This document shows positions 6,829 through 33,132 of a stretch of 64,000 nt of DNA, piece after piece. The notes below the pieces were generated by a model. That model was not told where the DNA came from and made no database searches. It saw only the letters and a list, made by a program, of their open reading frames with translations. The stretch lies in IMG/VR virus record IMGVR_UViG_3300042867_001113; one strand, given 5' to 3'. This stretch comes from a virus. Made by a program: the position numbers and the translations under genes. Numbering within the stretch: position 1 is the stretch's first letter; every line of letters starts with the position of its first letter.

Positions 6829-6882
6829 GGGCGAAGAAAGTCCGGGCACCCGATGGATCGGGTCCACGCGACGGAGGCAGCC

Positions 6883-7530
6883 ATGACGACCCAGAAGACC
6901 CGCGCCGAACACCAGACCCCCAAGTTCGGCATCACCTACAACGACGCGATGAAAGAGGCGATGACGATCGCTGCCCGCGCCGCGCGTCGCCACCACAAGT
7001 GGGTGTCCTGCGGGAGCGACAAGGACGACCTGCTCGCAGCCGCCTACGAGGGAATCCTCCTCGCTTGGAAGGCGTGGAAGGGCCCCGAAGTGGTCTCGTG
7101 GTCGTTTGCCGCGTGGACCTATGCGGAGCTGTACGCTCGCCGCGAGGGGAACCGCCGCAAGTCCGTCGTGAGCACGGGCAGCGGCAGCTACTCGCTGCAC
7201 AAGGGCCGTCAGGCGGTCCGTGACGACGCCCTGCTGATGCAGAACGAGGACGGGGCTTGGGTCGACGCTGACCTCAAGGACGAACGCCCGCTTCCCTCCC
7301 AGCAAGTCGAGATGATGGAGACCCTCCGAGTGATCGGGGTCGCCCTCCGCGAAGCGATCCCCACTTGCGCGGGAGAGCAAGTCGCCCTCGCCCAAGACGT
7401 GATCACCCAACGTATTCTGATCGACGTTGCCCAGAGCGCGGCCAGCATCGCTGACAAGCACGGGGTGAGCAGTGCGACGGTCTACAAGGTTGAGACCGCG
7501 CTGCGCGGGGCCTTGCAGGCTGCTCTCTGA
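6883..7530 (+). CDS. divergent sigma-70-family sigma factor
   Basis: Region-2-like DDLLAAAYEGILLAWKAW...SFAAWTYA and C-terminal HTH SIADKHGVSSATVYKVE; GGAGG before ATG 6883. Confidence 0.7.
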   Translation: MTTQKTRAEHQTPKFGITYNDAMKEAMTIAARAARRHHKWVSCGSDKDDLLAAAYEGILLAWKAWKGPEVVSWSFAAWTYAELYARREGNRRKSVVSTGSGSYSLHKGRQAVRDDALLMQNEDGAWVDADLKDERPLPSQQVEMMETLRVIGVALREAIPTCAGEQVALAQDVITQRILIDVAQSAASIADKHGVSSATVYKVETALRGALQAAL

Positions 7531-7537
7531 ACGACAG

Positions 7538-7564
7538 CGGATCCGGGTGAAAAACCCGGATCCG
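7538..7564. repeat. 11-bp inverted repeat (terminator or operator)
   Basis: CGGATCCGGGT-GAAAA-ACCCGGATCCG just after the sigma gene stop. Confidence 0.7.
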
Positions 7565-7615
7565 AGTTACTCAACCCTCAGAGCGGGATGGTTCCCGCCT
7601 ACACAGGAGACGCAG

Positions 7616-7903
7616 ATGAACAAGAACAATACCGTCCGTCGCACCCTCATCCAGAACGTCGTCGCCCCCTCGATTCATGGCGCACTTGCTGCGGTCCCCG
7701 GGCTCGACCTCAACCGCGAAGAGGATCGACGCCGCACGATGCGCGCGACGGTCCACACCGTCGCCGGTCTCCTGCTGGAGAAGGGAGCCAACCCCAACGA
7801 GCTTCTGCAAGCCTGCATCGAGGCGATCTCGAAGGAGATGGAATCGCTGCAGGCGCAGCACGAGGGTGACGGCACCTTCCCACAGGCTGGAGCCAACGCC
7901 TGA
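7616..7903 (+). CDS. hypothetical protein
   Basis: AGGAG then ATG at 7616. Confidence 0.75.
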   Translation: MNKNNTVRRTLIQNVVAPSIHGALAAVPGLDLNREEDRRRTMRATVHTVAGLLLEKGANPNELLQACIEAISKEMESLQAQHEGDGTFPQAGANA

Positions 7904-8034
7904 GCCGCACCTCCGTTGACCTTGAAGGACGGGGGTGACAGCCTGCTTCCGTGCAGCCCAAGCAACTGCTCGTGAACCCCGCACCTGCGATTCTGTAGGG
8001 GCGGGGTTCGGCCTTTGTGGGGAACGCCGCAAAT

Positions 8035-8070
8035 GAAAGACCCCGGACCATACGGTGCCGGGGTCTTTTC
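8035..8070. terminator. intrinsic terminator between convergent genes
   Basis: GAAAGACCCCGG...CCGGGGTCTTTTC hairpin. Confidence 0.75.
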
Positions 8071-8100
8071 AATTCCGCGCAGCTCGGGGCTTTAGAAAAC

Positions 8101-9045
8101 TCAGCCACCCAAGGGAGGAACAACCACCGCAGGCACGCCGGGGCAGAGGATCATCGTGACCTCCACCTTCGGGTCGCACTGACGGAGTCCCAGCGTGTCG
8201 TCGTAGGCGTAGCCGTAGGCCGTGCTGTGACAGCCTGCGTGAACCGCCTTGACGTACTTGGTCTGCACCACGGGACCGGCGCTGCACTGAGCTGGAGAGA
8301 CCGGAGGAGTCGGGCAGCAGTAGGGGGCAGGAGCGTCCGCAGACGGAGGCTGCTGGCCCTTGCCACCGAAGGTCGGGTACGTGAGCGCCGCGCACGGCGA
8401 GAAGCAGGCCCCGGCTTCCCCAGCGACGCGAAGGTCGACAGCTGAAAACTCAGGGTGCTGCTGCGCGAGGCCCTGCGAGAGGTTTTCTGATGTCGGACAT
8501 TGGTTCAAGTCGAGGCCAGAGCAATCCACATCCATGCATCCGTTGGACTCGGTAGACGCTTCGATCCGGAACGGCAAAGTGAAGCCGTCGACAGCAGACG
8601 CGTTCCAGAAGGTGTTGGCGACTGGGTTCCCCTGAGCGGTCACCGCGCACTTCGTCTTGTCCTCAAGAGAGCAACCCCAGGTCGCTTCCAGTTTGGAGTC
8701 GACCGGCGGCGCGCATCCTGCGGGTGGGCACGGGGGAGACGACTGACCGACCTTGCAGTTGTTGCCGATGTCATCGCAGCCGGTCTTGGGCCAGTAGCGC
8801 ACGGAGGGAAGACCCGCGTCTGGGATTGGGAACGTCGCCGTGTCGCCCTTGATGAGCTTCGTCACGTCAGGCGAGCCCGTGTGGCCCTGCTGCTGCACCC
8901 ACACCGTGTCGGCGCACTGGTTGAGGATCTTGAGAGAGCGGCCCTCGGCCAGCTTCGGACCTGCGTCCGGAGCTGCGGGTGCCGGAGGTGTCGGGCACCC
9001 CGTGAAAAAGGCCGCGACCACGAGCACCGCATAGAAAATCTTCAT
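8101..9045 (-). CDS. thaumatin-like (PR-5) lipoprotein
   Basis: Signal peptide with FFTGC lipobox; NQCADTVW, RYWPKTGC, SAVDGFTLP, CFSPC, YCC and YGYAYDD thaumatin motifs. Confidence 0.9.
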   Translation of the reverse strand: MKIFYAVLVVAAFFTGCPTPPAPAAPDAGPKLAEGRSLKILNQCADTVWVQQQGHTGSPDVTKLIKGDTATFPIPDAGLPSVRYWPKTGCDDIGNNCKVGQSSPPCPPAGCAPPVDSKLEATWGCSLEDKTKCAVTAQGNPVANTFWNASAVDGFTLPFRIEASTESNGCMDVDCSGLDLNQCPTSENLSQGLAQQHPEFSAVDLRVAGEAGACFSPCAALTYPTFGGKGQQPPSADAPAPYCCPTPPVSPAQCSAGPVVQTKYVKAVHAGCHSTAYGYAYDDTLGLRQCDPKVEVTMILCPGVPAVVVPPLGG

Positions 9046-9083
9046 GGAAAACTCCGCACCTCGGAAATCGAGGTCGGCGGACC

Positions 9084-9302
9084 TTACCCTACGATCACGT
9101 CCGGGCGAAGGGCCTCGACGTCCACAGGTGGCTTCCCACAGACACCGCACTTCGCGGGCGCTTGGCGGCAGTTGATGCTGACCCGATTGCAGCACCGAGC
9201 GGCCCACACGACCTCTTCCTTCTGCTCAAGGAAGAGTGGCAGCAGCAACAGTCGGACGATCGGGTCGTCGCGCAGAGGAACGGGTGTCTCCGAGTCGCTC
9301 AT
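9084..9302 (-). CDS. small Cys-rich protein
   Basis: RCC...CGVC motifs; abuts the upstream gene. Confidence 0.55.
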   Translation of the reverse strand: MSDSETPVPLRDDPIVRLLLLPLFLEQKEEVVWAARCCNRVSINCRQAPAKCGVCGKPPVDVEALRPDVIVG

Positions 9303-9532
9303 CAGACCACCTCCGGAATTGGAATAACGTCGACGATGTCAGGCGGGCAGATGACCGACAGCGTGCGCCCGTTGTCCCAGCGGATTCCAAGTTGCCATTC
9401 CTTGGAGACCCCAGATGGGCTCCGCTCAAAGACCGTGACGGTGTGGACGGTCCCCTCAGTCCCGACAGGGATCGGGTCAGGGTCGTCAGGCATGTGGACG
9501 AGGCGGACGCGGTCACCTTTTTTCACGTTCAA
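9302..9532 (-). CDS. DUF4314-like protein
   Basis: GDRVRLVHMxDD..PIPVGTEGTV...WDNGRTL. Confidence 0.8.
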   Translation of the reverse strand: MNVKKGDRVRLVHMPDDPDPIPVGTEGTVHTVTVFERSPSGVSKEWQLGIRWDNGRTLSVICPPDIVDVIPIPEVV

Positions 9533-9540
9533 GTGGCACC

Positions 9541-10713
9541 TCAGAAGGGGAGGACGGTTGGCTTCTCGGGGACGTAGGGGGCGGGTGCTTTCGGCAGGTT
9601 TATGACCGGGGTGTGCGAGGTGATCATCGTCTGCTTCACCGCCGCCGCCTTTATAGCCGCCTTCGATGCCGCCGCTGCGTCAGCGAGAGCTTGCGCGTTG
9701 TCGACATGCTTCATCACGCTCGCCATGTCTGCGCTGATGGCCGCGACGTCGATGTAGGTCGGGGTCTTCTTGTAGACCTGCGTGATCAGGTCTGTGACCT
9801 GAGGAAGGTAGCTCGCGTCGCACATCCACGCCTTCGTTGCGGCGTCCCAGCTTCGATCCTTGTAGGGGATCATGTTCTTGAACCCCGCGATGAATGTCGC
9901 GTCGTAGGGCGTGTTGATCTTCAGGCTGTTCCCGTTCTTCTCGATTCGGCAGGTGGACACGGGGCCTCCGGGTGCTGGGGTTGCCTGCACTGTAACAGGC
10001 GTCAGCGTCGGCTTCAGTACCGCCGAGGTTGCGAGGAAGGCTTCCACCTCGACACGAGCATCCGCCAGTCCGACGGACATTGGGTAGTGCGTCTGGACGA
10101 TGGTGGCGAAGGCATCGAGGTGCTTCGGGTCAACACCGAACATCCGACGACCCGGTTTCGGAGAGGGGAAATTCACCGCGCCAAGACTGTGGAGCTTATG
10201 ACGTGCTGCTGGGCAGCGGGGACCGTCGACGAAGATTCGAGGGCCCTTTGATGTGAGGGGGTCGAAACGGACCACGGCATCCCCAGTAGCTGCCTCGCCG
10301 TTCCAGAGAGCCGCGACACCGAGGTACCCGAGCCATCGAGCGACTTCAGAGCAGGCTTTCAGCACCTTCCAGCGGGTGCTGTCGTAGCTCAGGATCTTCT
10401 CGATCTTGCGGATCGCGATGCGCCAGTCTGTCCCGTCGAGGTTCAGCGTGAGCATGCCGAGCAGGTCGGCATACGTTGCTTGCGCGTCGGGGGTGATGCT
10501 GGTGTCGGGGTTGATTGTCAGGAGCGCCATGAGCGCCTCTGGAGGGTTCGCTGGGATGCTGTTCGCGAGGAGCTTGTTGTCCTGCTTCCGGCAGATAGGA
10601 CCGATGCCCGCCTCGATGGAGGCCATGTCCGTCAGGTCTTTCCGACACCGGCAGCACGATCGGCCTGTGTGCGACTTGAACTGCGGGGCGACATTGCTTG
10701 TGTTGATGTCCAT
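9541..10713 (-). CDS. zinc-finger (DUF6011-like) multidomain protein
   Basis: CxxC..LTDxxSIExGIGPIC N-terminus; PYD..RSWDxxxKAW small domain; GGAGGAG RBS. Confidence 0.75.
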   Translation of the reverse strand: MDINTSNVAPQFKSHTGRSCCRCRKDLTDMASIEAGIGPICRKQDNKLLANSIPANPPEALMALLTINPDTSITPDAQATYADLLGMLTLNLDGTDWRIAIRKIEKILSYDSTRWKVLKACSEVARWLGYLGVAALWNGEAATGDAVVRFDPLTSKGPRIFVDGPRCPAARHKLHSLGAVNFPSPKPGRRMFGVDPKHLDAFATIVQTHYPMSVGLADARVEVEAFLATSAVLKPTLTPVTVQATPAPGGPVSTCRIEKNGNSLKINTPYDATFIAGFKNMIPYKDRSWDAATKAWMCDASYLPQVTDLITQVYKKTPTYIDVAAISADMASVMKHVDNAQALADAAAASKAAIKAAAVKQTMITSHTPVINLPKAPAPYVPEKPTVLPF

Positions 10714-10902
10714 CGGGTGCTCCTCCGAAAACCGTTCCGGTGATGCTGATGTAACTCGTGATCGTCAGATCCGTTTTCTGCGCTCGTATGAACAACAGCC
10801 GTGCTGGACCGTAGAAAACTCATGTTTCCGCGAACCTTGAGGTGATTCCCGCTGAAGACTGGGGCCGCAGATCATGCCCCGAGGGGCAGGGGGTTCGGAC
10901 AT

Positions 10903-10944
10903 TCCACGAGCGGGTTTGCCCACTCCACGAGCGGGTTTGCCCAC
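10903..10944. repeat. perfect 21-bp tandem repeat (2 copies)
   Basis: TCCACGAGCGGGTTTGCCCAC at 10903-10923 and 10924-10944. Confidence 0.95.
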
Positions 10945-11116
10945 ATACAGCCCCGATCCCCGTACATCGCGTCCGGAAGCCATTTTCACGGGTGATCACC
11001 AGATCTGGGATCGAGCAATATCTTTTTTTGAATTTATTTTCGCGCAGATCACCGCGTTCGGAAGCCGTTTTCCGCGCAGATCCGCAGATCAGTTCATTTG
11101 AACTCGGACGTGACTG

Positions 11117-11144
11117 TTGACTTCAACGCGGCTGGTGTTATGAT
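11117..11144 (+). promoter_or_regulatory. sigma-70-like promoter with extended -10
   Basis: TTGACT-N16-TATGAT with TG before the -10. Confidence 0.75.
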
Positions 11145-11182
11145 GATCTCACGGCACGGATGCCGCACCGAAGGAGCCCGCC

Positions 11183-11383
11183 ATGATCGCCATCGCTACT
11201 GTCCTCGCCACTGTCCCCAGCAGCAGCAACCCCGAGGTGGTCTACACGATCAAGCGCGGGGCCGACGGCAACGTCTACTGCAGCTGCCCCGCGTGGAAGT
11301 TTCAGAAGCTCAACCCCGCGCAGCGCACCTGCAAGCACCTCCGCAACCTCGCCGCCAGCATGAAGCAGCACGCCGCGAAGTGA
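11183..11383 (+). CDS. SWIM zinc-finger protein
   Basis: CSCPAW...CKH; AAGGAG RBS. Confidence 0.85.
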   Translation: MIAIATVLATVPSSSNPEVVYTIKRGADGNVYCSCPAWKFQKLNPAQRTCKHLRNLAASMKQHAAK

Positions 11384-11469
11384 GCTGCAGCTGCCCCGCG
11401 CAACGCAGCCTCCCCCGGTCAGCCCGGGGTTCAGGCGTAGCGGCACGGTTGCCGCGCAAGGAGCAAAAC

Positions 11470-11682
11470 ATGCGAACCCCCAAGACCACCAAGCTTCAAA
11501 TTGTCGAACGCGCCACGGGCGTGGTGCTCGACGCAGACGCTGCCCCCACAGCGTTTCTCTGCGCCAAGGGTGGACCCGCCGTCAAGCGTGATGGGTGCTG
11601 GTTCGAGACTCGCTACGAGGGGTTCGAGGTGCGCGACGGCGAGCAGATCTACGACGTCCGGGTCCGCGCCACTCGCGGTTGA
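11470..11682 (+). CDS. hypothetical protein
   Basis: AAGGAG then ATG at 11470. Confidence 0.65.
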   Translation: MRTPKTTKLQIVERATGVVLDADAAPTAFLCAKGGPAVKRDGCWFETRYEGFEVRDGEQIYDVRVRATRG

Positions 11683-11736
11683 ACTGAAGTTACTTCCCTC
11701 CCACAACCCGGCACGAATGCCGACTTGGAGAATGTC

Positions 11737-12015
11737 ATGAAAGCCGTCATCGGAAACACCTTCCCCGTGAAGGAGCAGATCAAAGCCCTCGGCGGTCGAT
11801 GGGACGGCATGAAAAAGTGCTGGAACGTCCCTGACGAGAAGTTCGATGCCGCGATGGCGCTCGTCACAGGAGCGGGCCCGAAGGGCAGCTACGTCGCCTC
11901 GACAGGCTCGGTGCGCGCCGCTCCCCGCCCATCGAAGGGGTGGCGACCCTGCGGCTACCCGGGCTGCAACAGAGCGCACTGCGATGAGTGCGATGGAGCC
12001 GGGTTCTACGGATGA
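11737..12015 (+). CDS. small protein with GGRWD..KCW (DUF5710-like) domain and Cys tail
   Basis: NTFPVKEQIKALGGRWD..W; C-terminal Cys cluster. Confidence 0.75.
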   Translation: MKAVIGNTFPVKEQIKALGGRWDGMKKCWNVPDEKFDAAMALVTGAGPKGSYVASTGSVRAAPRPSKGWRPCGYPGCNRAHCDECDGAGFYG

Positions 12016-12221
12016 CGCTCGATTGGATTGCCTGCAATGTCTGCGAAGACGACGGGTTCGTTTGGATCCCGTGCGTCCGCTACAGCACCGCGCACTGGCG
12101 CCGGAAGGGCGAATCGGAGTTTTCCATTGTGAAACACCGCGAGCGCTTCCGCTACCCGTGCGAATGCGCGCGCGGTTCGGCTTGGATCGAGGACCAAAGA
12201 CGAGGCAAGGATCCTGACTGA
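12012..12221 (+). CDS. small zinc-finger protein
   Basis: CNVC...CEC; ATGA overlap. Confidence 0.6.
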   Translation: MTLDWIACNVCEDDGFVWIPCVRYSTAHWRRKGESEFSIVKHRERFRYPCECARGSAWIEDQRRGKDPD

Positions 12222-12223
12222 GG

Positions 12224-12706
12224 TCAGCCGGATTTCGATGATCGAACGCCGCGCTTCTTCCAGTTCTCCAGCACCTTCACGCGCTTCTGCAAGTTCGCCA
12301 GCACGGCTTGGTTGTCCGCACACGCACAAGGAGCCCCTGCCTGCACCACAGGGGCGTCAGGAGCGGCCTCCGACGAATCCTCGTTTGAGGGAGGAGCACT
12401 CATCAGCTCGCCCTCCAGCGACACCTTCAGTTCGGAGACAGCCTGTGGGTCCACGTCCTTCGCCAGCGCAATCGCCTTCATGCGCTCATCGTGGCCAGCC
12501 TGCAGGACCATCTGCAGCTTCTTGCCGATGCCTGCCACGAGGACTGCGAACGCCATAAGCGCTCCGAGCAGACCGGACCCTTCCATTGTGGACGGCGACG
12601 TGGCTGGAGCCTGCGAGGGGTCAACAGCGATACTCGCGAGGTCATCGGGAGTCAGCCCCTCCGTCGGCGCGTCGTTCACGAGGGCCGCTTCTTCTTCTGG
12701 GTTCAT
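12224..12706 (-). CDS. membrane-anchored hypothetical protein
   Basis: One hydrophobic segment LLGALMAFAVLVAGIG. Confidence 0.7.
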   Translation of the reverse strand: MNPEEEAALVNDAPTEGLTPDDLASIAVDPSQAPATSPSTMEGSGLLGALMAFAVLVAGIGKKLQMVLQAGHDERMKAIALAKDVDPQAVSELKVSLEGELMSAPPSNEDSSEAAPDAPVVQAGAPCACADNQAVLANLQKRVKVLENWKKRGVRSSKSG

Positions 12707-12841
12707 GGATGCCTCGGGTCAAGTTTTCAACTGACCCTGAGCATAACCCACATTGAAACGAGCTGAAAGCCGAGCCCGTAAGCCAGTCCATGCGGTGTTA
12801 CTCTCCGCAGACCCCTCCACAAGACGCTCGTAAGGACACCC

Positions 12842-13093
12842 ATGTCACGCAAGAATTCCACCGAAAACCCGAAGTTCATCGCCTCCCGGCCTCTCGTCGG
12901 CGAGATGCGGTCCGTTATCAAGCGGTCGATCGACCTGTGCCCCGAGGCCGATCCTGAGATGCTCATGGCCGAGCTGTTTCAGCGGTTCGTTGACGATGGG
13001 CTCATCGAGCAGGCTGACTGGGCGGAAGACCTCGTCCTCTCGATGGCCATCGCGGAAGTCGACGCCATGTGGGCGAGAGCGGAGGTCGTGTGA
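12842..13093 (+). CDS. hypothetical protein
   Basis: AAGGA then ATG. Confidence 0.7.
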   Translation: MSRKNSTENPKFIASRPLVGEMRSVIKRSIDLCPEADPEMLMAELFQRFVDDGLIEQADWAEDLVLSMAIAEVDAMWARAEVV

Positions 13094-13257
13094 AGCAGCC
13101 CAAGCTCAGGACGCGTTCCTACGTCGCTCGACAGGCGTGGGACCGGGGAGGTGCTGGTCCGCATCGGGATCAGAAGGCTCATGCGAAGCGGCGGGCCTGC
13201 AGGGGCCGCGTCACAGCCGACGATTGAGGACCATACGGGCCTGTTACTGGACTGGGT

Positions 13258-14421
13258 ATGAAGCATCCGAAGTACCCTCTGTATATGGAAGGCGACCCGT
13301 CTCCGGTGATGCCTGACGGCGCGACACTCTGGACGAAGCCGGAGGTGACGGACAAGCCAGCGATGTCCTACGAGCGGGTCGACGGGTCGAGGCTCATCAG
13401 GACGATCGGCGACCTCTACCGCTACACGCAGCATCTGATCGGGGAAGGGTTCAAGGGGAACCCCCGTCCCGGCGTTCTGGACATGGACCGGAACGAGATC
13501 CTGCTGACGCTCGGCTCCATCAGCGCGCACAGGAACGCGAAGGACTTCGGCATCGACGACATGGCGTTGACTCCACGAGAGGAGATCGCCCGAGACTCGT
13601 CCATCCTGCACCACTGGCAGCATCATCGCTGGGATGCCAACGGGCGCTTCATCTACGACCTCACCGTCGAAATCGCCCAAGCCTTCCTCGATACAGACCT
13701 CACCGTCGTCCCTGAAGACATCGCTCTCCCTGAGAGCACCTGCTACATCGCGGTCCCCGCAAGCCTTGGCTTGAAGGTGTGGCACGCAGCCACCGGCTTC
13801 CACGACCTCGATGGCTTCTACGTCACGCTCTCCGACGAGATCTTCACCATCGTCGCTTGTGGCTTCGCTCAACCGGGTCGCCCCAGCTACGACAACGCCC
13901 TCGCATCCTTTACCTTCGCCAGCTTGGGGAAACAGACCGTCGCTGAGTGGATTGCAAAGGAAGAACTCGATCCAGTCTCGACGAAGATCATGGGGCCGAA
14001 CGCAGCCCAAGTTCCCATCTGGACTCGGCTCGTCGTCAACGCCCTGCTCTACATCAGCAACGTCCGCGAAGACGTTCGCCACGACGTGGACTACGGTGTG
14101 CCCTCCAAGAAGATAGAGCACGCGAAACGAATCCAAGGGCGTCGCGTTCGTGAGAAGTACCTGAGCGAGTGGCGGGTGCGCTGCCGCTACCACATCCTCG
14201 GCGAAGCGGTGCAGAAGGCTCTTGGTTCCTCCACAGGCGGGACCAGCGTCGAGGGCACATCCCCGCAGGTGCGCTTCTCTGTGCGGGGACACTGGCGTCA
14301 GCAGCCTCATGGCCCTCAGAACTCCCTGCGGAAGCTGCTGTGGATCCAACCTTTCTGGAAGGGTGCAGACAAGGAACCATCAGACACACCACGGATAACC
14401 CATATCGTGAAAGTGGTCTGA
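13258..14421 (+). CDS. conserved phage protein with C-terminal VRGHWR motif
   Basis: VRGHWRQQ..G....KLLWIQPFWKG; 387-aa ORF. Confidence 0.8.
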   Translation: MKHPKYPLYMEGDPSPVMPDGATLWTKPEVTDKPAMSYERVDGSRLIRTIGDLYRYTQHLIGEGFKGNPRPGVLDMDRNEILLTLGSISAHRNAKDFGIDDMALTPREEIARDSSILHHWQHHRWDANGRFIYDLTVEIAQAFLDTDLTVVPEDIALPESTCYIAVPASLGLKVWHAATGFHDLDGFYVTLSDEIFTIVACGFAQPGRPSYDNALASFTFASLGKQTVAEWIAKEELDPVSTKIMGPNAAQVPIWTRLVVNALLYISNVREDVRHDVDYGVPSKKIEHAKRIQGRRVREKYLSEWRVRCRYHILGEAVQKALGSSTGGTSVEGTSPQVRFSVRGHWRQQPHGPQNSLRKLLWIQPFWKGADKEPSDTPRITHIVKVV

Positions 14422-14465
14422 GCCCTGCTAGGGTCTTCAAGTCCGCTTCGGACATTGAGGTTCAT

Positions 14466-15062: not shown

Positions 15063-15302
15063 TCAAAAGCTCCCTTTCAAGAACGCCATGAAGGTTCCGG
15101 TCTTTCGGTCATGCGTGATCGAAAACTGGACCTTCGCGTCTATGCACGCGCGCTCCAGCATGAAGTCCAGCCTGCCCTGAACGAAATCCTGCACCAGCGC
15201 CTCAGCAATCTTCGTCGTTGATGCGTCCATGAACGGGCTTCGGATGATGCTAGCTGCCTCGGCGTTTATCGAGTCGAGCGCCTGTTGTGGGGTGAACTTC
15301 AT
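15063..15302 (-). CDS. hypothetical protein
   Basis: ATGA overlap with the upstream gene. Confidence 0.6.
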   Translation of the reverse strand: MKFTPQQALDSINAEAASIIRSPFMDASTTKIAEALVQDFVQGRLDFMLERACIDAKVQFSITHDRKTGTFMAFLKGSF

Positions 15303-15604: not shown

Positions 15605-15618
15605 GGAGACCTCAGGTG

Positions 15619-16143: not shown

Positions 16144-16151
16144 GAGTCACC

Positions 16152-20658: not shown

Positions 20659-20661
20659 AGG

Positions 20662-22496: not shown

Positions 22497-22538
22497 GGAC
22501 GTGTTCACGCCATGAACACGTCCGACCGACGTGTTCAT
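22497..22538. repeat. three-arm inverted repeat
   Basis: GGACGTGTTCA / ATGAACACGTCC / GACGTGTTCAT. Confidence 0.85.
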
Positions 22539-22588
22539 TTCAGAGTGGTTTTTGCACACGTCATGACGCAGGCGCCGGAAGGATCATC

Positions 22589-23239: not shown

Positions 23240-23260
23240 ATAACCTCCGGTACGTTGTCA

Positions 23261-23892: not shown

Positions 23893-23908
23893 GTCTGGGG
23901 AGTAACCG

Positions 23909-25538: not shown

Positions 25539-25603
25539 GAGGCGCTCCTTCCCTAGTTCGTCAGCCACTGAACGCGCTGACACTTGATGCACACGATCAT
25601 GGT

Positions 25604-25888
25604 TCACCTCCACGTCTGCAGCGTGCGGAGAAGTTCCTCGACGGAGACTTTGGAGAGTTGGAGCAACGCCGCGCGCCGGATTTCAGCTGCGGTGAACGTC
25701 TCTTCGGACGCCGTCGTCTTGGGAGAGACGCCCGCCTTGGTGATGGTGACCTCGTCGTCGAGGCCGGGGTTCGTCTTGTTGCGAACGAACTTGATCAGCT
25801 CGTCGCGGTCGTCGCACGAGATCAAGATTCGCGGTTCGCCTTCAGGCTCGTCGCGCAGGGCAATGTCACCGACCGCTAGGATTCTCAT
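25604..25888 (-). CDS. hypothetical protein
   Basis: ATG at 25888 with GGAG and GTTAC upstream. Confidence 0.7.
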   Translation of the reverse strand: MRILAVGDIALRDEPEGEPRILISCDDRDELIKFVRNKTNPGLDDEVTITKAGVSPKTTASEETFTAAEIRRAALLQLSKVSVEELLRTLQTWR

Positions 25889-26343
25889 GCTCCCTCCGTA
25901 ACAGGGTCCGTATGGTCCTCTTCGTTCCAGACCAGCTCCCCTGCGGCATTGGTTCCGATCCCCGCTCCTCGCCAAGCATCGAGCCCGGTCGGGAAGACGC
26001 GGATCAGCATACCGAAGTTCGGGGTCCGCACGAGCACGAGCGGCTCCCAATGGGAAGTCGCCCGGGTCTCCAGCACGGAGTTGCAGTGGTCCAGAAAACT
26101 CGGGTCTTCCCGAAGGTGGTCGAGGGCCATCCAGTGCTCCACCGCGTTGATGCTCTCGCCCTCCGCGTCGTACCCTCGATCTTCGTCGTCGGACCACCGG
26201 ACTTGCTGGGAGGTCATACCGACCAAGTCGCAGATGGTGCAGCGAGGATCGCTGAACTCGGCGGTCACGTTGTGCGGTCTGTTGAGCGACAGCACGCCTC
26301 GCTCAGGCATCCTGCAGACAGGGCAAAGGGTCCGATTGCTCAT
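25885..26343 (-). CDS. hypothetical zinc-finger protein
   Basis: CPVC...CTIC. Confidence 0.7.
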   Translation of the reverse strand: MSNRTLCPVCRMPERGVLSLNRPHNVTAEFSDPRCTICDLVGMTSQQVRWSDDEDRGYDAEGESINAVEHWMALDHLREDPSFLDHCNSVLETRATSHWEPLVLVRTPNFGMLIRVFPTGLDAWRGAGIGTNAAGELVWNEEDHTDPVTEGA

Positions 26344-26356
26344 AGGGTCACCGCTT

Positions 26357-26632
26357 TCAAGGCGTCGTCTTCTTCACGACGATGGCGACGTCCGGTGCAT
26401 TGTTCAGTTCGATGTGGTCGATCGCTCTCGACACGATCCACTTGCTGGACCTCACCCCACAGAGGAAGGCGCTGCTCAAAGCCGGGAGCATGGCCCTCGC
26501 AGTGGGCTCGTCGACATCCTTCAAAGGGGTGCCGACCTCCTCACCGTTCTTCCGCCGGATGACCACCCGGAAGGAGGGGTTGTTGAGAAAACTTGACTGC
26601 GGGTCCGGTTCGACATGGATCTTGTGCTTCAC
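26357..26632 (-). CDS. hypothetical protein
   Basis: GAGG then GTG. Confidence 0.65.
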   Translation of the reverse strand: MKHKIHVEPDPQSSFLNNPSFRVVIRRKNGEEVGTPLKDVDEPTARAMLPALSSAFLCGVRSSKWIVSRAIDHIELNNAPDVAIVVKKTTP

Positions 26633-26701
26633 GTGTTCCTCACTTTGACCGCGCCAGCAGACACAGCAACCGGATATCCTGCGGATGCGCTTCCGAGGCG
26701 G

Positions 26702-26980
26702 TCACGATTGGACTCGTGCCTTCCTGAGAGCGGCGCGGGCATTGGCGGTCACGAGTTCACCGGCAGTGACAGACTCCAAGGCGATGCAAAGTTCCTCCAG
26801 CGCCTTCACCAAGTCAGGCGCAGCGGCCATGACAGCGGCGTTGGCTTCGGCCTCTTCAGCGGAGCACGTTCGGGGGTCGGCTTCGACGCGAACGTAGAAG
26901 TGGTTCACGCCCCTGTCAGACAGCGTGTAGACGGTGCGCCCCTCTCGGAGCCACGGACCAGAGGTGTGTTTCAGCGGCAT
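26702..26980 (-). CDS. phage protein of the HTxGPW / ANA..AAAPDL type
   Basis: KHTSGPW...EANAAVMAAAPDLVKALE. Confidence 0.8.
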   Translation of the reverse strand: MPLKHTSGPWLREGRTVYTLSDRGVNHFYVRVEADPRTCSAEEAEANAAVMAAAPDLVKALEELCIALESVTAGELVTANARAALRKARVQS

Positions 26981-27183
26981 TCCAGATCCTGTGCTTTCGT
27001 GATGGCGTTCTCGACAAGGGCGATGGACCGGGTCCACTCCTCGTCTCCCCACGCTGCGGTGGTGAGCGAGTGAGGCAGAAGTGGCCTGATGGTCAGGAGA
27101 GCCTCCAGCATCAGGTCGAACGCCTCTTGCTTGGCAAGACGCTGCGTTGCGTCAAAGTCTCGGCGGCTCTCCCAATCGCTCAT
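26971..27183 (-). CDS. hypothetical protein
   Basis: AAGGAG RBS; ATGA overlap. Confidence 0.65.
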   Translation of the reverse strand: MSDWESRRDFDATQRLAKQEAFDLMLEALLTIRPLLPHSLTTAAWGDEEWTRSIALVENAITKAQDLECR

Positions 27184-27572
27184 GGTTGCTCCTTCGGCTT
27201 CTCAGGCATCAGGAGCGTAACCGGGGCGTCGCCGTTCTTCTCGGCGAGGGCCGTCAACCCCGCCCGCTGGATGGTCGCCGTCGCAACGAGGGCCTGAACC
27301 CTGTGCCCAGTGAGGTGCGCTGCGAGCGTAGCGCTGAGCAGGGTGGGGTCACCCGCAGGCACCACTTCCAAGACGTCTTTGGCTTCCACCATTCCGTGGA
27401 CGGTGCAGTAGACCTTGCCGCTCGGGCCGAAGGGCTGGAAGAGGTGCGCCTGCTCCTCCGTACTCGCCCAGTCGTCGTGCGCGTTCTCCACCGTCACGAC
27501 CGTGAGCACAGGGGCAATGTGCGGGCGGGTTTCCCGCAGGTAGTGGATAAAGTCTCCGAGCTTCGCGTGCAT
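27180..27572 (-). CDS. hypothetical protein
   Basis: GGAG then ATG at 27572. Confidence 0.65.
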   Translation of the reverse strand: MHAKLGDFIHYLRETRPHIAPVLTVVTVENAHDDWASTEEQAHLFQPFGPSGKVYCTVHGMVEAKDVLEVVPAGDPTLLSATLAAHLTGHRVQALVATATIQRAGLTALAEKNGDAPVTLLMPEKPKEQP

Positions 27573-27945
27573 GGGTCGCTCCGGGGGGTTCGTGTTCTCA
27601 CGGAAGTAACTCACCCCACGGATTTCTTTTTTCTGAAAACCGCTTTGTCAACTCCACTGGAAAACTGGCCTCGGTGATCAGAGGGGGCAAAGGGGGGTCT
27701 GGTTTCCCGAAAAATCCTCGAAGCGGAGAAGAAAAAAAGTTTCGGCAAACTAGGGGCCCTCTTCCGTTCCCATGGTCCGCCGGGCGTCCACCCCCCTCCC
27801 GGGGTCCGGGTCGGAAAATTAGACCGGGAGGGGGAAGTGGGGAGGCAGACAAACGGTGGGGAACTTTCCCTACGGGGTTCTGAAGAGTCTTTCTTCGGGT
27901 GATGACAAATCATGCGCTTCGACAGATTAGATCCATTTGAACAAG

Positions 27946-28344
27946 TCAGCGCAGTCCCCTCATGATGTCTTCGAGTCGGTCCTCCCCTAGAGCGAGGAGC
28001 TGTCTCTCGGCTGCGACTACAAGGACGGCGCGTTCTTGGTGAGCCCTCAATGGAAGGGTGCAGCTCAGGATGCTCACGATTGCCTGAGGAGACAGCTCGG
28101 CGATTCGTTCTGCGGCTTCCCTCATGAAGTCGAAGACCTCAGCCACCTCCGGCGTTTGGTGGGCCGACAAGCCTGCGTCCTTCCCGGCCTGCTCCCATGG
28201 CTTGGTGAAGATGGTCGTGGCTGCGTCCGCGCCTGCAGATGCCAGACGGACGTCGATCCACTCCAGCACCTCCCGGGCAGTGCGGCGAGGTGCATTGGAC
28301 GAAGGCAGAGACGTCAGATGGTCGACGAAGGCTTTGGCGTTCAC
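27946..28344 (-). CDS. hypothetical protein
   Basis: GTG start overlapping the upstream stop. Confidence 0.65.
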   Translation of the reverse strand: MNAKAFVDHLTSLPSSNAPRRTAREVLEWIDVRLASAGADAATTIFTKPWEQAGKDAGLSAHQTPEVAEVFDFMREAAERIAELSPQAIVSILSCTLPLRAHQERAVLVVAAERQLLALGEDRLEDIMRGLR

Positions 28345-28532
28345 TTGGTCCCCTCGAAGGGTGGAACGTAGGCGCTGTCGCGCGAGCACTCGCTGTCGGC
28401 CTCACAGCCAGCTTCCCCGCACTCCCAGCACATGCCGGGGGCCTGCACGTCGTCGCTCACTGCGATGTCGAAGCAGTCGCGGCACGCGCAGCTCGTGTAC
28501 CCGCTGCCTCCGGTCTTGGTGGGCTTGCTCAT
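28341..28532 (-). CDS. small Cys-rich protein
   Basis: CACRDC...CWEC...C; GTTAC 9 nt upstream. Confidence 0.7.
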   Translation of the reverse strand: MSKPTKTGGSGYTSCACRDCFDIAVSDDVQAPGMCWECGEAGCEADSECSRDSAYVPPFEGTK

Positions 28533-28719
28533 GTCAGGGATGTAACAGGCTGGCGACCTATCAGGTGGAGGTTGACTGCCGACTAGGGGAAAGCACTGAA
28601 CAGAAAACTAGCACCCGGGGTTTCTCGGGAGGTTTTGAGAGGTTTCTAGTGGGTTTTCAGAGAGGTTTTCTTCAAGGACCACATGGTCCGTCTAATCCAC
28701 GTTCACTTGAACGTAGTTG

Positions 28720-28747
28720 TTGACTTCTACGCGCATGGTGTTACCGT
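28720..28747 (+). promoter_or_regulatory. sigma-70-like promoter
   Basis: TTGACT-N16-TACCGT with extended TG; closely resembles the 11117 promoter. Confidence 0.65.
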
Positions 28748-28785
28748 GGGATCACGGCATGGTTGCCGCCACCAAGGAGCGCCAG

Positions 28786-28965
28786 ATGAGCTACCGCAGC
28801 TACTACATCCCGACGGACCGCGAAGAGGACGCCATGCGCGCGAGCGACGAGCGCAACGAGGCCCGCCGCGAGCTGGAAGCGATCCACCCCGATGACCGCA
28901 CCGACGAGGACTACCGCAACGCGGGGATCCGTCGGGGCTACAGCGCCCACCGAGAGGAGCGCTGA
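28786..28965 (+). CDS. small acidic/basic protein
   Basis: AAGGAG RBS after a leader hairpin. Confidence 0.7.
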   Translation: MSYRSYYIPTDREEDAMRASDERNEARRELEAIHPDDRTDEDYRNAGIRRGYSAHREER

Positions 28966-28966
28966 G

Positions 28967-29206
28967 ATGCTCGCCATGCTCATCCCCTCGAAGATCGCAG
29001 TCGGCGACAAGCTGATGGTGGAAGGAACGCTCCACGAGGTGACCCGCATCGACGTGAAGCGCGACCCACGAACCTCCAAGCGGAAGAACGGGTCGCCCCG
29101 ACTCGGGACCGTGCGGAAGGTGACTCTCCACTTTGATGGCCGGAAGCGCACGCTGTCCCGCCTGCAACGGGTACTGGTTCAGCGAAGCGAACCTGCGCTC
29201 ACTTGA
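28967..29206 (+). CDS. small basic beta-barrel-like protein
   Basis: GAGGAG RBS; IAVGDKL motif. Confidence 0.65.
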   Translation: MLAMLIPSKIAVGDKLMVEGTLHEVTRIDVKRDPRTSKRKNGSPRLGTVRKVTLHFDGRKRTLSRLQRVLVQRSEPALT

Positions 29207-29648
29207 GCGTGTAGAGTTCGCGCATTGCTTCATCGAACTGTTTCTGGTCAGCGACGCTGGTGCTCAGGGCCACAGCGACGCGGCCCTCTCGCCATTGCTT
29301 GACAGCTTCCGAGAGCAGCTTGCTGTCGACCTTCGAGGTCAGGACGTGCGCGGGCTTCTCGATCACCCACCCGGCGTAGTTGGTGGCGTCTGGGTCTCGC
29401 AGGGTGATGTCCCCGCCTGCATGAACGAGCTGCAGGGCTGGCTGCCACGTAGGGCGGCGGTAAAGCGCGACGTAGGTGCTGCCGTTCCAGCGAGTCTCGT
29501 CGCTCTTCTCAGCCTCTTCAGCACCGGCCTTGCAGGACTCCCAGCCGATCTGCGTCCGCGTCTCCACGAGCTTCCAGTCGTCGGGATGAGCGGCGAGGCT
29601 CGCGATGATGTGCGCGCAGAACGGATCGGGCTTTGAGAACGGCCACAT
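29199..29648 (-). CDS. hypothetical protein
   Basis: MWPF start; GTTAC 10 nt upstream. Confidence 0.7.
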   Translation of the reverse strand: MWPFSKPDPFCAHIIASLAAHPDDWKLVETRTQIGWESCKAGAEEAEKSDETRWNGSTYVALYRRPTWQPALQLVHAGGDITLRDPDATNYAGWVIEKPAHVLTSKVDSKLLSEAVKQWREGRVAVALSTSVADQKQFDEAMRELYTLK

Positions 29649-29691
29649 GACCCGGGCAGTAACAGAGCTTCAGAAAACTGGTCCTCAAACG

Positions 29692-29717
29692 AAAAAAGCA
29701 CCGGATTGCTCCAGTGC
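29692..29717 (-). terminator. intrinsic terminator
   Basis: GCACTGGA-GCAA-TCCGGTGC-TTTTTT on the minus strand. Confidence 0.85.
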
Positions 29718-30025
29718 CTTCTTCCCGTTCTCTTCTGCCTGTCGCGAAACAGGCTTCATCGGACGAGCGCGTCGTTCCGCGCGGTCCCGACCTTCCGCTG
29801 TCACCGCTCAGGCTTTCACCTGCGAGGCGCGGTCTCTGTCCTTGGCCCGGGTGAGGGGTTCAGGTCGGAGGCCGTTGTGGGGCTTGGTCGGAGCCCTGTG
29901 TCCCGGTCAGCGATTCGGCTGGCTTTCGGTGAGGACCAATCAGGCTTGCGCCGTCTCGAACCATGCCGTCGTCCAGTCCCAGCAGCGACCCTCTTGCGAG
30001 GAAAACTACCGGGCGACGAGTGCTT
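29692..30025 (-). ncRNA. candidate large structured non-coding RNA (~330 nt)
   Basis: Gene-free gap with nested helices, several GNRA tetraloops, G-U pairs favouring the minus strand and a terminal hairpin plus U6. Confidence 0.65.
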
Positions 30026-30081
30026 TCTCTCATGGGTCCAAGAGAGCGTCAACACTTTTTTTCAGATGGGCCCGTGCTCCT

Positions 30082-30363
30082 TCAGCAGTTCGGGTCGCAC
30101 TCGGCGCAGCCGTGGCCGTTGCACACGCCGCAGGGCTCGGGAAGGTTGACGCAGAAGAGCCAGCCCGCGTTCGGGACGAAGACGTAGTCGCCAAGGGTGA
30201 GGGCCTTCACGGCGCGAACCATATGGTCCGTCGCATGTGGCGGGCACAGCGCCTTGACAGTGGCGATCGTCTCGTCGAGGAGGTGTAGCTGCAGGCGCTT
30301 GCGCGGCGCTACCTTGTCGAGGTCGCCTGCGAAGTGGAAGCGCCGTGCGTTCGGGTTGTTCAT
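30082..30363 (-). CDS. hypothetical protein with Cys tail
   Basis: CGVCNGHGCAEC; ATGA overlap. Confidence 0.65.
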   Translation of the reverse strand: MNNPNARRFHFAGDLDKVAPRKRLQLHLLDETIATVKALCPPHATDHMVRAVKALTLGDYVFVPNAGWLFCVNLPEPCGVCNGHGCAECDPNC

Positions 30364-30617
30364 GCCCAGCCCCCTTCGTGGGCGGCTTGGTAGCTGGCGC
30401 GTTCGGCTTCCCGTTCCATGTAGCGCTCCTCGCAGGCGTCGTGGTCGACGCAAGTGACGGCGAGCACCTCGCGCCGGTCGAGGTCGTACTCCCAGAGCAC
30501 GTCGTGCTTGCGGGTGCCGCAGCACATGCAGGGGTACTGGATGCCCTTGCACACTTCGGTGGCGATGCGCGGGTTGCGGACGATCTTGTGGGTGTTGCGG
30601 TCGAAGGGTGCGTTCAC
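30360..30617 (-). CDS. small zinc-binding protein
   Basis: CMCCG...C....C; GGAG then GTG. Confidence 0.7.
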   Translation of the reverse strand: MNAPFDRNTHKIVRNPRIATEVCKGIQYPCMCCGTRKHDVLWEYDLDRREVLAVTCVDHDACEERYMEREAERASYQAAHEGGWA

Positions 30618-30674
30618 TTGAGGCTCCGTTGGGCATCCATGCCCGTTGGGTCTCGGCTCGGTTGCCGTGATCTG

Positions 30675-30703
30675 ACTGTAACACGGTTCACGGACACTGT
30701 CAA
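30675..30703 (-). promoter_or_regulatory. sigma-70-like promoter
   Basis: TTGACA-N17-TACAGT with extended TG. Confidence 0.75.
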
Positions 30704-30849
30704 CACAAGAGCACAGATCTAGTTCAATCGAACTAGATCTGCGGGCACGAGGATCTCGGCGGGGCCGCGTGGGCTGTCGGAAAACTGTGTCGGGCCCTCC
30801 AACGGAGCACGAGGCTCCGGGGTGAGGGAGGTTCGGAGGCAGGACTCGC

Positions 30850-31455
30850 TCAGTCGCTGCTGTCGACCTCGCTGTGGACCGTGGCGGTCAGGTCGCCGGG
30901 GTTGCCTGTGACGACGTGGACTTGGCCTCGGGGGTATGCCTTCAGCGCGGCGATGTCGTCTGCCGTCAGGGGGGCGTCGTCGCAGCGGACCACCACGTCG
31001 GTGTAGACGTAGTAGCAGTTCCCGGCCTGCCCTCCCTTGCTCTGGATCGTTCGGAAGTTGCAGGCGACGTAGCGGCGGTCCTTCGGGTCGGTGATGCCCG
31101 TGGGGCGGGTCTCGATCACTTCGCCGAGGACGTAGGCGTGGGGTTCGCTCAGGGCGAGGGTCCGTCGCGCCTTGTAAGCCGCCCACGCTGCGTTCTTCCC
31201 CGTGATCTGCTTGGGGAGGGCCAGCATCGTTTGGATGCTCTGGAAGGAGGCGCTCCGCTGGTGCCGTTCCTCGGTCAGCTGGTAGGTAGCCGTCGTGCCG
31301 ATCTGGGTCAGCGCGATCACGCGGCGGTCCATCAAGGCGTTCGGCGCCGAGAGCGAGACCGTGAAGGTCACCCGGTTTTCGCTCGCGTCCTTGTGGTGGA
31401 CGTTGCGGACGGCGGGGGTCTTGAGGGCGGGGGTCTTGGCGGTGTGCGTGGTCAT
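30850..31455 (-). CDS. hypothetical protein
   Basis: GGAGG then ATG at 31455; strongly GC3-biased codons. Confidence 0.8.
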   Translation of the reverse strand: MTTHTAKTPALKTPAVRNVHHKDASENRVTFTVSLSAPNALMDRRVIALTQIGTTATYQLTEERHQRSASFQSIQTMLALPKQITGKNAAWAAYKARRTLALSEPHAYVLGEVIETRPTGITDPKDRRYVACNFRTIQSKGGQAGNCYYVYTDVVVRCDDAPLTADDIAALKAYPRGQVHVVTGNPGDLTATVHSEVDSSD

Positions 31456-31490
31456 GCGATCCTCCGGGGCGGCATCCGTGCCGTGATCAC

Positions 31491-31518
31491 AGCATAACAC
31501 CGCTAGCGCGGCTGTCAA
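31491..31518 (-). promoter_or_regulatory. sigma-70-like promoter
   Basis: TTGACA-N16-TATGCT with extended TG. Confidence 0.75.
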
Positions 31519-31659
31519 CAAGCAACCACGGATCTTGTTCATATGAGCGGATCTGGCCGGATCTGACCGTCCGGCAGGCGACTCGCCCAAGCGGCTTCCG
31601 GGCCGGTTTCGGAAAACTGGTCCCGGGCCCCCGGGCGAACCATATGGTCCTCGCCCCCA

Positions 31660-31986
31660 TCAGCTCGGGCGAGAGAGGCCCTTACAGGCAACGATGGTGC
31701 CTGCAGCGTCGCGCACGACTTCACCGGGAACGAGTAGGTCTTTCCGCTCAGGGAGCGCCTGCGCGACCATCAACGAGACGATGAGGAAGACCCCGGGCTC
31801 TGCGGGAGGCATGTCGACGACGCCACCATAGATGACGCGGTCGACCGGGATGCCATCGACGATGGAGAACTGCATGCGGGTTGACGCTGTTCTCGGCGTC
31901 GGAAAGGTCGGCTCGATTGTCCGGATGGCCTCCTCACCCACGAGGATGCGGACGACGTGAGGGGTGCGGTTGACGAGGGTGGGCAT
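31660..31986 (-). CDS. conserved phage protein (NxTPH family)
   Basis: VNRTPH...LIVS..VA..RKDLLVP..VRD..G. Confidence 0.8.
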   Translation of the reverse strand: MPTLVNRTPHVVRILVGEEAIRTIEPTFPTPRTASTRMQFSIVDGIPVDRVIYGGVVDMPPAEPGVFLIVSLMVAQALPERKDLLVPGEVVRDAAGTIVACKGLSRPS

Positions 31987-31989
31987 TGG

Positions 31990-32223
31990 TCATCCTATCG
32001 GCGTGAAATCGAAGTACCGACGTGGCGAGTGAGTGAACATCATCACGCCCTTCACGCCGTCGGCCTTGCGGATGACCGAGACGAAGGGTGCGAGGAACCC
32101 TTGGACTGTGAAGTGCTCTTGCAGTTGCTGGGTGTCGTAGGACACATCCGCGTCAGCCAGCCGCTGCGTGGGGACGTCGCTGTCGATCAGGAAGCGGCGC
32201 GTGGTCTCGGTTGAGTCGGTCAT
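31990..32223 (-). CDS. hypothetical protein
   Basis: AAGGAG RBS; FTHSPRRYF motif. Confidence 0.75.
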   Translation of the reverse strand: MTDSTETTRRFLIDSDVPTQRLADADVSYDTQQLQEHFTVQGFLAPFVSVIRKADGVKGVMMFTHSPRRYFDFTPIG

Positions 32224-32603
32224 GAGTTCTCCTTGAGTCCTGCGAGGGCCCGACGACACATCGTCGCCACCTCGTCCGTGTCTTTGTTCCCGCTGATGCC
32301 GTCCCGCTGCCACCAGTCGGCGACGGCCTGACACGCCTCCCGTAACGCCTCACGCTCGGCTTTCACCCGTTCGACGTAGGTCTTTCCCCGATCGAGGACG
32401 TCGAGCATGGCTTGGGCGTCAGGGGCGCTCCCGGCGCGGGCGATGGTCGAGAGACGCATCAGCAGGGAGGCGGTGACCTGCGCCCACTCCAGCTCGGGGA
32501 GAGTCTGGATGCGGGCCAGCTCGGCGCGGGCCTCGCGCAGCTCCGCAAGGGCTGCGTCGAGGGTGGTCGGCTCTGGTCGAGGACGCTGTTCGTCGATTCT
32601 CAT
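32220..32603 (-). CDS. coiled-coil protein
   Basis: ATGA overlaps on both sides. Confidence 0.7.
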   Translation of the reverse strand: MRIDEQRPRPEPTTLDAALAELREARAELARIQTLPELEWAQVTASLLMRLSTIARAGSAPDAQAMLDVLDRGKTYVERVKAEREALREACQAVADWWQRDGISGNKDTDEVATMCRRALAGLKENS

Positions 32604-32998
32604 GGGCTGTCCGCTGGGGTTTCGGGGTGGACTGTTTGTTCGGCCTTCGCCGCTTTCGCAGCGTCGGCGTCTTCGGTCCGGATGGCGCGCACCGCGCGTT
32701 CACGCATGAGCTTCGTGAGCTTCTTCGCGAACTGCGCGTCCGTGGTGTCGCTGACGTTGGTGCTCAAACCGACGTGGGCCCTCACCACCTCCGCGCTGAT
32801 GTTGGTCGGGCCTGCGATCATCTCGTACTGGCGAAGTCGCACGATAAAGTCCTCGACATTCTTCGGGGTGATCCCGCCGAGGTCGAGAGCCATCGTCAGC
32901 CAGATGAGCGCGTCGGTGGCGACCCGGATCTCCCCTTCAGGCGTGAAGCACACCGTCTCGTTGTTTTTGACCTTGGTGAAGTCGAAGTGCAGGGCCAT
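32600..32998 (-). CDS. hypothetical protein
   Basis: GGAG then ATG at 32998; HVGLSTNV motif. Confidence 0.75.
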   Translation of the reverse strand: MALHFDFTKVKNNETVCFTPEGEIRVATDALIWLTMALDLGGITPKNVEDFIVRLRQYEMIAGPTNISAEVVRAHVGLSTNVSDTTDAQFAKKLTKLMRERAVRAIRTEDADAAKAAKAEQTVHPETPADSP

Positions 32999-33132
32999 GA
33001 GGACTCTCCGGGTTGTCGACAGCATCCGTGCTGCACCCCTCCCGTAACTGGCTTGCGCTCCGTTTCGCAGATCCGTTCAAGTGAACAACATTTTACGACT
33101 GATGGATCTGCGGATCGAGTTACTGCTGGGGC

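Follow-up and report, generated by a model that had tools for sequence, protein, structure and literature searches.

Stem-loops at or near the 5' ends of mRNAs are known from both bacteria and their phages. In Escherichia coli and Bacillus subtilis, 5' hairpins impede RppH and stabilise mRNA, and stem-loops of the type found in the ompA, papA and aprE leaders protect against conversion by RppH and against 5'-end-dependent decay by RNase E or RNase J (review PMC3997798, with its references 93-95 and 109). For phages, PMC8948821 describes a 5' CUUCGG hairpin that stabilises T4 gene 32 mRNA (citing Tuerk 1988), CUUCGG hairpins dispersed in phage intergenic regions, and some T4-type C(UUCG)G hairpins that confer stability at mRNA 5' ends (citing Tuerk et al. 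1988 and Gorski et al.). Here we describe a family of at least 13 small hairpins, located at or near predicted mRNA starts and just 5' of the ribosome-binding site (RBS), in the uncultured phage genome of the IMG/VR virus record IMGVR_UViG_3300042867_001113. The analysis centred on a stretch of 64,000 nucleotides, called the window below, which corresponds to bases 27264-91263 of the 109,966-bp record (61% GC). They fall within a class already known from phages and bacteria, that of 5' leader stem-loops, of which this repeated family with its own loop signature is a new form.

Like the E. coli ompA and papA leaders, the B. subtilis aprE leader and the hairpins appended to bla, the phage leaders combine a short hairpin near the 5' end, here a predicted one, with an accessible RBS. 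They differ from these in being repeated as a family with 13 or more copies in one phage, in their A-NGNW-U loop signature, and in having three copies that are not 5'-terminal. With the T4-type C(UUCG)G hairpins they share the character of a small tetraloop family repeated in phage intergenic regions. However, the T4 loops are conserved as the exceptionally stable UUCG, whereas the loops here are NGNW with a weak A-U closing pair and unremarkable energies, and the hairpins consistently lie just 5' of the Shine-Dalgarno (SD) sequence. Arbiol et al. reportedly described in 2010 the promoter-early stem-loop (PeSL) cassettes of the T4-like phages RB49 and phi1, in which the stem-loops are said to be transcription terminators. 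PeSL cassettes are repeated modules of a strong sigma70-like promoter and a stem-loop between small non-essential genes of a plastic region, resembling the modules found here at mosaic junctions; in contrast to the PeSL terminators, the present hairpin is downstream of the promoter, lacks a U-tract and precedes an SD.

An earlier note on the window, made from its letters alone, had listed eight of these hairpins. All eight read as written on their strands, and each is followed 3-10 nt later by a GGAG and then by ATG or GTG. A family size of eight was too low, since at least 13 members exist in this genome. Four of the five additional copies (named here and below by position: 432, 6369 and 11441 in the window, and 20695 of the genome, outside the window) were found by a scan for perfect hairpins with a 5-bp stem and a 4-nt loop; the fifth is 10739 (Table 1). 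Enrichment was measured with a pattern in which four perfect pairs and a closing A-T pair enclose an NGNN loop, with an SD and a start codon downstream. This pattern occurs 13 times in the 110-kb genome, 11 of them at accepted family members, compared with 1.77 ± 1.26 times (maximum 5) in 100 dinucleotide shuffles and three times in a mirror-orientation control; the strict scan missed 432, which has no canonical SD, and 10739, which contains a G.U pair. Allowing one G.U pair brought the scan to the noise level of the mirror control (17 vs 17), and only matches at orthologous leader positions were accepted from it. A permissive scan for any hairpin of at least 5 bp was uninformative in this GC-rich DNA, with 91 of 162 upstream regions positive. 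The covariance model that the earlier note had proposed as a check was trained on 26 distinct copies from five genomes; in the genome it finds 12 copies at 18.9-29.5 bits, and the next match scores 13.8 bits. The structural half of the window contains no family member. A search of the 64-kb window against Rfam at the gathering score returned no match, and a tRNA scan was likewise empty. Scanning IMG/VR with the pattern TCACGGCANGNNTGCCG yielded chance matches only, the sole multi-match locus being a coding tandem repeat.

Four related IMG/VR contigs, with a sigma-like protein 84-87% identical and a RecA up to 93% identical to those of this genome, retain the hairpin at all of about 30 orthologous positions. 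The compensatory stem changes claimed in the earlier note are borne out by the 6849 group, in which two pairs have changed on both sides (CCCGA/TCGGG to CCTGA/TCAGG, and the sixth pair from A-T to G-C). Across the 26 distinct copies, double changes are found at four of the five stem pairs; the 100% pairing in this count is by construction, as the members were chosen as perfect stems. Free of that selection bias are the G.U wobbles, which pair solely in the mRNA sense and occur in three orthologous groups: the 11441 orthologues of relatives G001 and G003 have TGTCG instead of TGCCG, the 6369 orthologue of G004 reads TCGCA...TGCGG, and one pair of the 10739 group switches between G-C and G.U. 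The compensatory changes and the sense-only wobbles therefore point to RNA structure, and by sequence comparison the family is a sense-strand RNA structure that is both enriched and evolutionarily maintained.

These observations also bear on a reading in which the inverted repeat functions as double-stranded DNA, where a dimeric repressor would bind it as a palindromic operator over +1. Several promoters do have a perfect palindrome at or just after the predicted start, and the commonest half-site, CGGCA, recurs. Yet the half-sites vary (CGGCA, CGGGA, CCCGA, CCTGA, CAGCA, GGGCA, CCGCA, CGGAA) through paired changes that keep the symmetry, each G.U wobble would be an A.C mismatch on the opposite strand, the loop G is found solely on the mRNA-sense strand, and one copy has no promoter. 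We consider a DNA operator at the hairpin very unlikely. A separate palindrome, GTTCAnnTGAAC, looks more like an operator. It is located just upstream of the -35 element in several early promoters (30712-30743, ~11095-11106, 28700-28711 and 33070-33081), at 30712-30743 as the core of a 14-bp inverted repeat, and is a candidate DNA operator distinct from the leader hairpins.

The loop carries a signature of its own. In all 26 distinct copies the closing A, the closing U and loop base 2, a G, are invariant, an invariance that is partly ascertainment because the search was made with these bases fixed as A, G and T. At loop position 4, 25 of the 26 have A or T, and positions 1 and 3 vary freely. 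In the orthologous groups, which were found by homology, 13 substitutions were counted in the loop, all of them at positions 1, 3 or 4, with position 2 unchanged. The conserved signature is thus stem-A-[N G N W]-U-stem; of the pattern A-YGRW-T seen in the earlier note, the flanking A and T stand, while the loop itself widens to NGNW once the extra copies and the relatives are included.

The earlier note had read these hairpins as sites of a regulon of probable early genes, at which CsrA/RsmA, from host or phage, would contact both the loop GGA and a second GGA in the SD. The hairpin-plus-SD geometry is indeed that of CsrA/RsmA sites, and five of the 13 copies in this genome have an A-YGGA-U loop. 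As the note had counted among its eight, four match the consensus CANGGANG exactly, one nearly and three do not. The spacing from loop GGA to SD GGA is 11-18 nt, within the range that a CsrA dimer is said to bridge (reportedly defined by Mercante et al. in 2009). Moreover, csrA genes are present in about 1% of phages (PMC7366521). A GGA-containing SD follows nearly every copy, which is true of almost any SD and not diagnostic of CsrA. In the loop, however, GGA is neither general nor conserved: it is missing from eight of the 13 copies here and present in 10, missing in 16, of the 26 distinct copies over the five genomes. Among 16 orthologous groups it is always present in five, never in eight and gained or lost in three, the exchanges being CGGA and GGTT at 33033, CGAA and CGGA at 432, and CGGT and CGGA at 10739. 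The linear motif CANGGANG is at chance frequency in the window (57 occurrences vs 48.8 ± 6.6 expected), and the suggested search for a phage csrA gave no match to PF02599 in the 110-kb record, which has an estimated completeness of 84%. The host may lack CsrA as well, as do some lineages that host phages or plasmids carrying csrA, such as Burkholderia cepacia/cenocepacia and S. meliloti (PMC7366521). CsrA is therefore an unlikely reader of the hairpins, and we give this reading little credence.

The position of the hairpins was assessed against promoter calls and against a GTTAY element, similar to a -10 box, that is common to all promoters; many genes have GTTAC alone, with no -35 element. 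Five copies start 10 nt after GTTAY, five start 11-15 nt and two start 23 and 33 nt after it, and the distance is undefined in the promoterless copy. In all five copies at 10 nt, a purine occupies the 10th position after GTTAY, directly before the stem. The earlier note had also seen TCACGGCA at promoter starts; four of its six copies in the window do directly follow a -10 element, but the count of six, against 3.5 expected, is not significant on its own. A ruler for the start sites comes from genes with no SD: GTTAC ends 9 nt before the ATG in 10 genes and 10 nt before it in five, any other distance being found in at most three. Judged by sequence, these 15 genes appear to represent a class of promoters for leaderless mRNAs, in whose recognition the phage sigma-like protein may take part. 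Examples in the window include 2848, 13258, 22368(-), 23892(-), 25888(-), 28532(-), 29648(-), 33133, 35660(-), 43182(-) and 63448(-). The spacing from GTTAC to ATG in this class therefore calibrates the start site at the 10th-11th nucleotide after GTTAC. With start sites predicted in this way, five leaders would have the first hairpin base at +1 or +2, and about ten would have it no later than +6. By promoter calls and the GTTAC-to-ATG ruler together, the stem lies within about 0-4 nt of the predicted 5' end in 9-10 of the 13 copies, and three copies do not fit. The SD, which follows the stem by 0-10 nt (21 nt in a single copy), is left largely unpaired by the predicted folds. Words that contain GATC, either GGATCTG or GGATCCG, were also observed 12-25 nt upstream of GTTAC at 6400-6420, 7540-7575, 10755-10775 and 33050-33070; those at 7540-7575 form the inverted repeat GGATCCGGG...CCCGGATCC.

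Comparison with the relatives shows how the leaders are assembled. Non-homologous genes share the segment running from the promoter -10 to the hairpin, and over 42 nt the cassette of 31483 matches the 11152-type cassettes of G001 and G003 at 93% identity. Where the 28755 cassette (window 28720-28790) aligns with its counterpart in G001 (L024:2440-2540), a different first gene follows. As read from these alignments, the hairpin moves together with the RBS and is located at mosaic junctions between related genomes.

The explanation that we favour, and that we hold to be about evenly balanced between right and wrong, is that the family consists of cis-acting 5'-terminal leader stem-loops that stabilise mRNA ends within promoter-leader-SD cassettes. 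With stems of 5-7 bp and 4-nt loops closed by A-U, the hairpins would stand in the 5' leaders of at least 13 early or middle transcription units, whose transcription would start about 10-11 nt after the GTTAY element. Most copies would then place the hairpin from between +1 and +6, giving a nascent mRNA with a base-paired 5' end and 0-4 free nucleotides, while the downstream SD would remain single-stranded. Such a stem-loop may hinder RppH-type conversion of the triphosphate end as well as 5'-end-dependent attack by RNase E or J, and it may also insulate the RBS when cassettes recombine in front of new genes. RppH acts poorly on 5' ends that are paired and leave only 0-2 nucleotides free (PMC3997798). 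Both the start sites and the stabilising function are what we infer from these data. Simple 5' stabilising stems, which the earlier note had named as the outcome if no protein bound and loop mutations had no effect, are a possible reading and fit the position data best, and the coexistence of leaderless and hairpin-capped classes in one phage fits a general need for 5'-end protection.

Several observations weigh against 5'-terminal stabilising stems. Three copies are not at the predicted 5' end: 6849 starts at about +14 (its longer stem reaches about +5), 30644 at about +24, and 11441 has no promoter. In the 30644 group of G001 (window 30650-30745 vs L024:470-600), the promoter region is replaced by unrelated sequence while hairpin, SD and start remain 100% identical, and the hairpin is therefore tied to the RBS and not to the start site. 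The invariant A, loop G2 and U, and the W at loop position 4, are unexplained by a pure stability role, and NGNW loops closed by A-U are not among the known extra-stable tetraloops. The 5-bp core has a modest folding energy (-4 to -7 kcal/mol). Leaders fold no better than their shuffles (z +0.8 to -2.0), and for this reason thermodynamic stability was rejected as a line of evidence; two minimum-free-energy leader folds lack the hairpin, and the minimum-free-energy fold of 10739 prefers another pairing.

A rival reading makes the hairpin the operator of a dedicated protein, either an RNA-binding protein or an endoribonuclease of phage or host, that would read A-NGNW-U and co-regulate about 13 leaders. 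This protein might repress or activate translation beside the SD, time the decay of early mRNA, or act in antitermination in the manner of N and boxB. The bases A, loop G2 and U are invariant in the 26 distinct copies while four of five stem pairs covary, and the absence of within-group substitutions at position 2 among 13 has a chance of (3/4)^13, or about 0.02. The position of the hairpin is also more constant relative to the SD than to the start site, and one copy (11441) is intercistronic. Against such a reader, CsrA, RegA, Hfq, ProQ and cold-shock domains were not found in the 84%-complete 110-kb record, three conserved loop-region bases hold little information for a specific protein site, and part of the similarity may reflect common descent of duplicated cassettes, as in the 42-nt identity of 31483 with the 11152 type. 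For antitermination, the closest comparison is lambda nut (boxA plus the N-bound boxB), which likewise places a hairpin with a 5-bp stem in early leaders downstream of early promoters. Unlike nut, the present leaders have no boxA-like element near the hairpins (YGCTCTTTA with at most one mismatch has 9 matches vs 11.7 expected, none adjoining a hairpin), the loop is a 4-nt NGNW and not a GNRA-like pentaloop, and each of 13 copies abuts an SD. We regard a dedicated reader as a tentative alternative, clearly less probable than mRNA stabilisation. Its boldest form would be a new post-transcriptional regulon of the phage with the A-NGNW-U hairpin as operator: a reader encoded by an orphan early gene or by the host would recognise the invariant A, G2 and U beside the SD and switch about 13 early and middle messages of both promoter classes on or off together. 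This form seems to us rather improbable.

Table 1. Promoters and leader hairpins. Positions are those of the window unless stated otherwise; distances from a -10 element come from the promoter tool, except at 28755 (pattern scan).
Feature	Position (strand)	Sequence	Distance from upstream element	Gene that follows	Remarks
Promoter	6801-6828 (+)	TTGACw-N16/17-TAYnnT			sigma70-like, tool-called
Promoter	11117-11144 (+)	TTGACw-N16/17-TAYnnT			sigma70-like, tool-called
Promoter	28720-28747 (+)	TTGACw type			fifth of this type, pattern scan only
Promoter	30703-30675 (-)	TTGACw-N16/17-TAYnnT			sigma70-like, tool-called
Promoter	31518-31491 (-)	TTGACw-N16/17-TAYnnT			sigma70-like, tool-called
Hairpin 432	432..445 (+)	CCCGA-CGAA-TCGGG	11 nt after GTTAC	465-803	covariance model 19.4 bits; loop CGGA in G001
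Hairpin 6369	6356..6369 (-)	CCGCA-CGCT-TGCGG	10 nt after GTTAC	6323-5937	extendable to 7 bp; orthologue loops CGTT (G001, G003) and GGGT with U.G wobble (G004)
Hairpin 6849	6849..6862 (+)	CCCGA-TGGA-TCGGG	20 nt after -10 of promoter 6801-6828	6883-7530, sigma-like	tip of longer stem
Hairpin 7583	7583..7598 (+)	GCGGGA-TGGT-TCCCGC	12-13 nt after GTTAC	7616-7903	loop TGGT or CGGT in relatives
Hairpin 10739	10725..10740 (-)	CCGGAA-CGGT-TTTCGG	12-13 nt after GTTAC	10713-9541 (DUF6011)	one G.U pair, G-C or G.U in orthologues, with loop CGGA; abuts SD
Hairpin 11152	11152..11165 (+)	CGGCA-CGGA-TGCCG	7 nt after -10 of promoter 11117-11144	11183-11383	
Hairpin 11441	11441..11454 (+)	(G)CGGCA-CGGT-TGCCG(C)	no recognisable promoter	11470-11682	intercistronic
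Hairpin 11709	11709..11722 (+)	CGGCA-CGAA-TGCCG	15 nt after GTTAC	11737-12015	
Hairpin 28755	28755..28768 (+)	CGGCA-TGGT-TGCCG	7 nt after -10 (TACCGT) of TTGACT promoter	28786-28965 (open reading frame)	loop GGGT in orthologous cassette of G001
Hairpin 30644	30631..30644 (-)	GGGCA-TGGA-TGCCC	30 nt after -10 of promoter 30703-30675	30617-30360	
Hairpin 31483	31470..31483 (-)	CGGCA-CGGA-TGCCG	7 nt after -10 of promoter 31518-31491	31455-30850	29.5 bits, top covariance match
Hairpin 33033	33020..33033 (-)	CAGCA-CGGA-TGCTG	10 nt after GTTAC	32998-32600	stem kept in G001, loop GGTT
Hairpin 20695	20695 of the genome (-)				outside the window

Short operons on either strand, interspersed with numerous intergenic gaps, make the first 34 kb of the window a mosaic; the structural genes lie beyond it. 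As the earlier note had proposed, the hairpins stand in leaders of early-type genes; the sigma factor that it counted among them is identified by structural look-alikes only. The 215-aa protein encoded at 6883-7530 (+) has no sequence match in Pfam or PDB, and its ten best family-bearing look-alikes in the ESM Atlas all carry sigma-70 region 2 or region 4, a lead by which it is probably a divergent phage sigma factor. An alignment-based search with this protein recovered only the same four relatives. The genes 3' of the hairpins have essentially no Pfam or PHROGs families and thus show no functional theme. Elsewhere in the early region, a patatin-like phospholipase (Pfam E 1.5e-18) is encoded at 3840-4634 (-). 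The 314-aa product of the gene at 8101-9045 (-) matches the thaumatin family over its full length (Pfam E 2e-14), an unusual find in a phage; its sole genome relative found is in a cyanobacterial metagenome-assembled genome, at 40% identity.

We found no close cultured relative of the phage, a megablast search against phages giving no match, and the protein matches of the record are below 35% identity and spread over phages of many hosts. A RecA-family recombinase, a DNA primase and a DnaB-like helicase are encoded outside the window (L040:6843-8081(-), 11410-12468(-) and 12894-14192(-)), all less than 33% identical to cultured-phage proteins. Host inference gave no consistent answer: a structural protein has weak matches to Ralstonia jumbo phages, RecA, DnaB and primase match phages of many hosts at below 33% identity, and the matches of a methylase are promiscuous. 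A more distant relative, G005 (RecA 76% identical), is a 50-kb fragment in which no member of the hairpin family occurs and from which the early region seems to be missing. One base, at window position 41523, differs between the window and the IMG/VR record.

For annotation, the tempting CsrA label is removed as unsupported, and the conserved loop bases pose the question of whether the hairpin is a stability element or a protein site. The compact promoter-hairpin-SD cassettes mark mosaic junctions. The phage seemingly makes its mRNA 5' ends in two ways, either leaderless, with an ATG 9-10 nt after GTTAC, or with hairpin-capped leaders that start at the same distance, which would offer a picture of how early transcripts are protected and organised in an uncultured phage.

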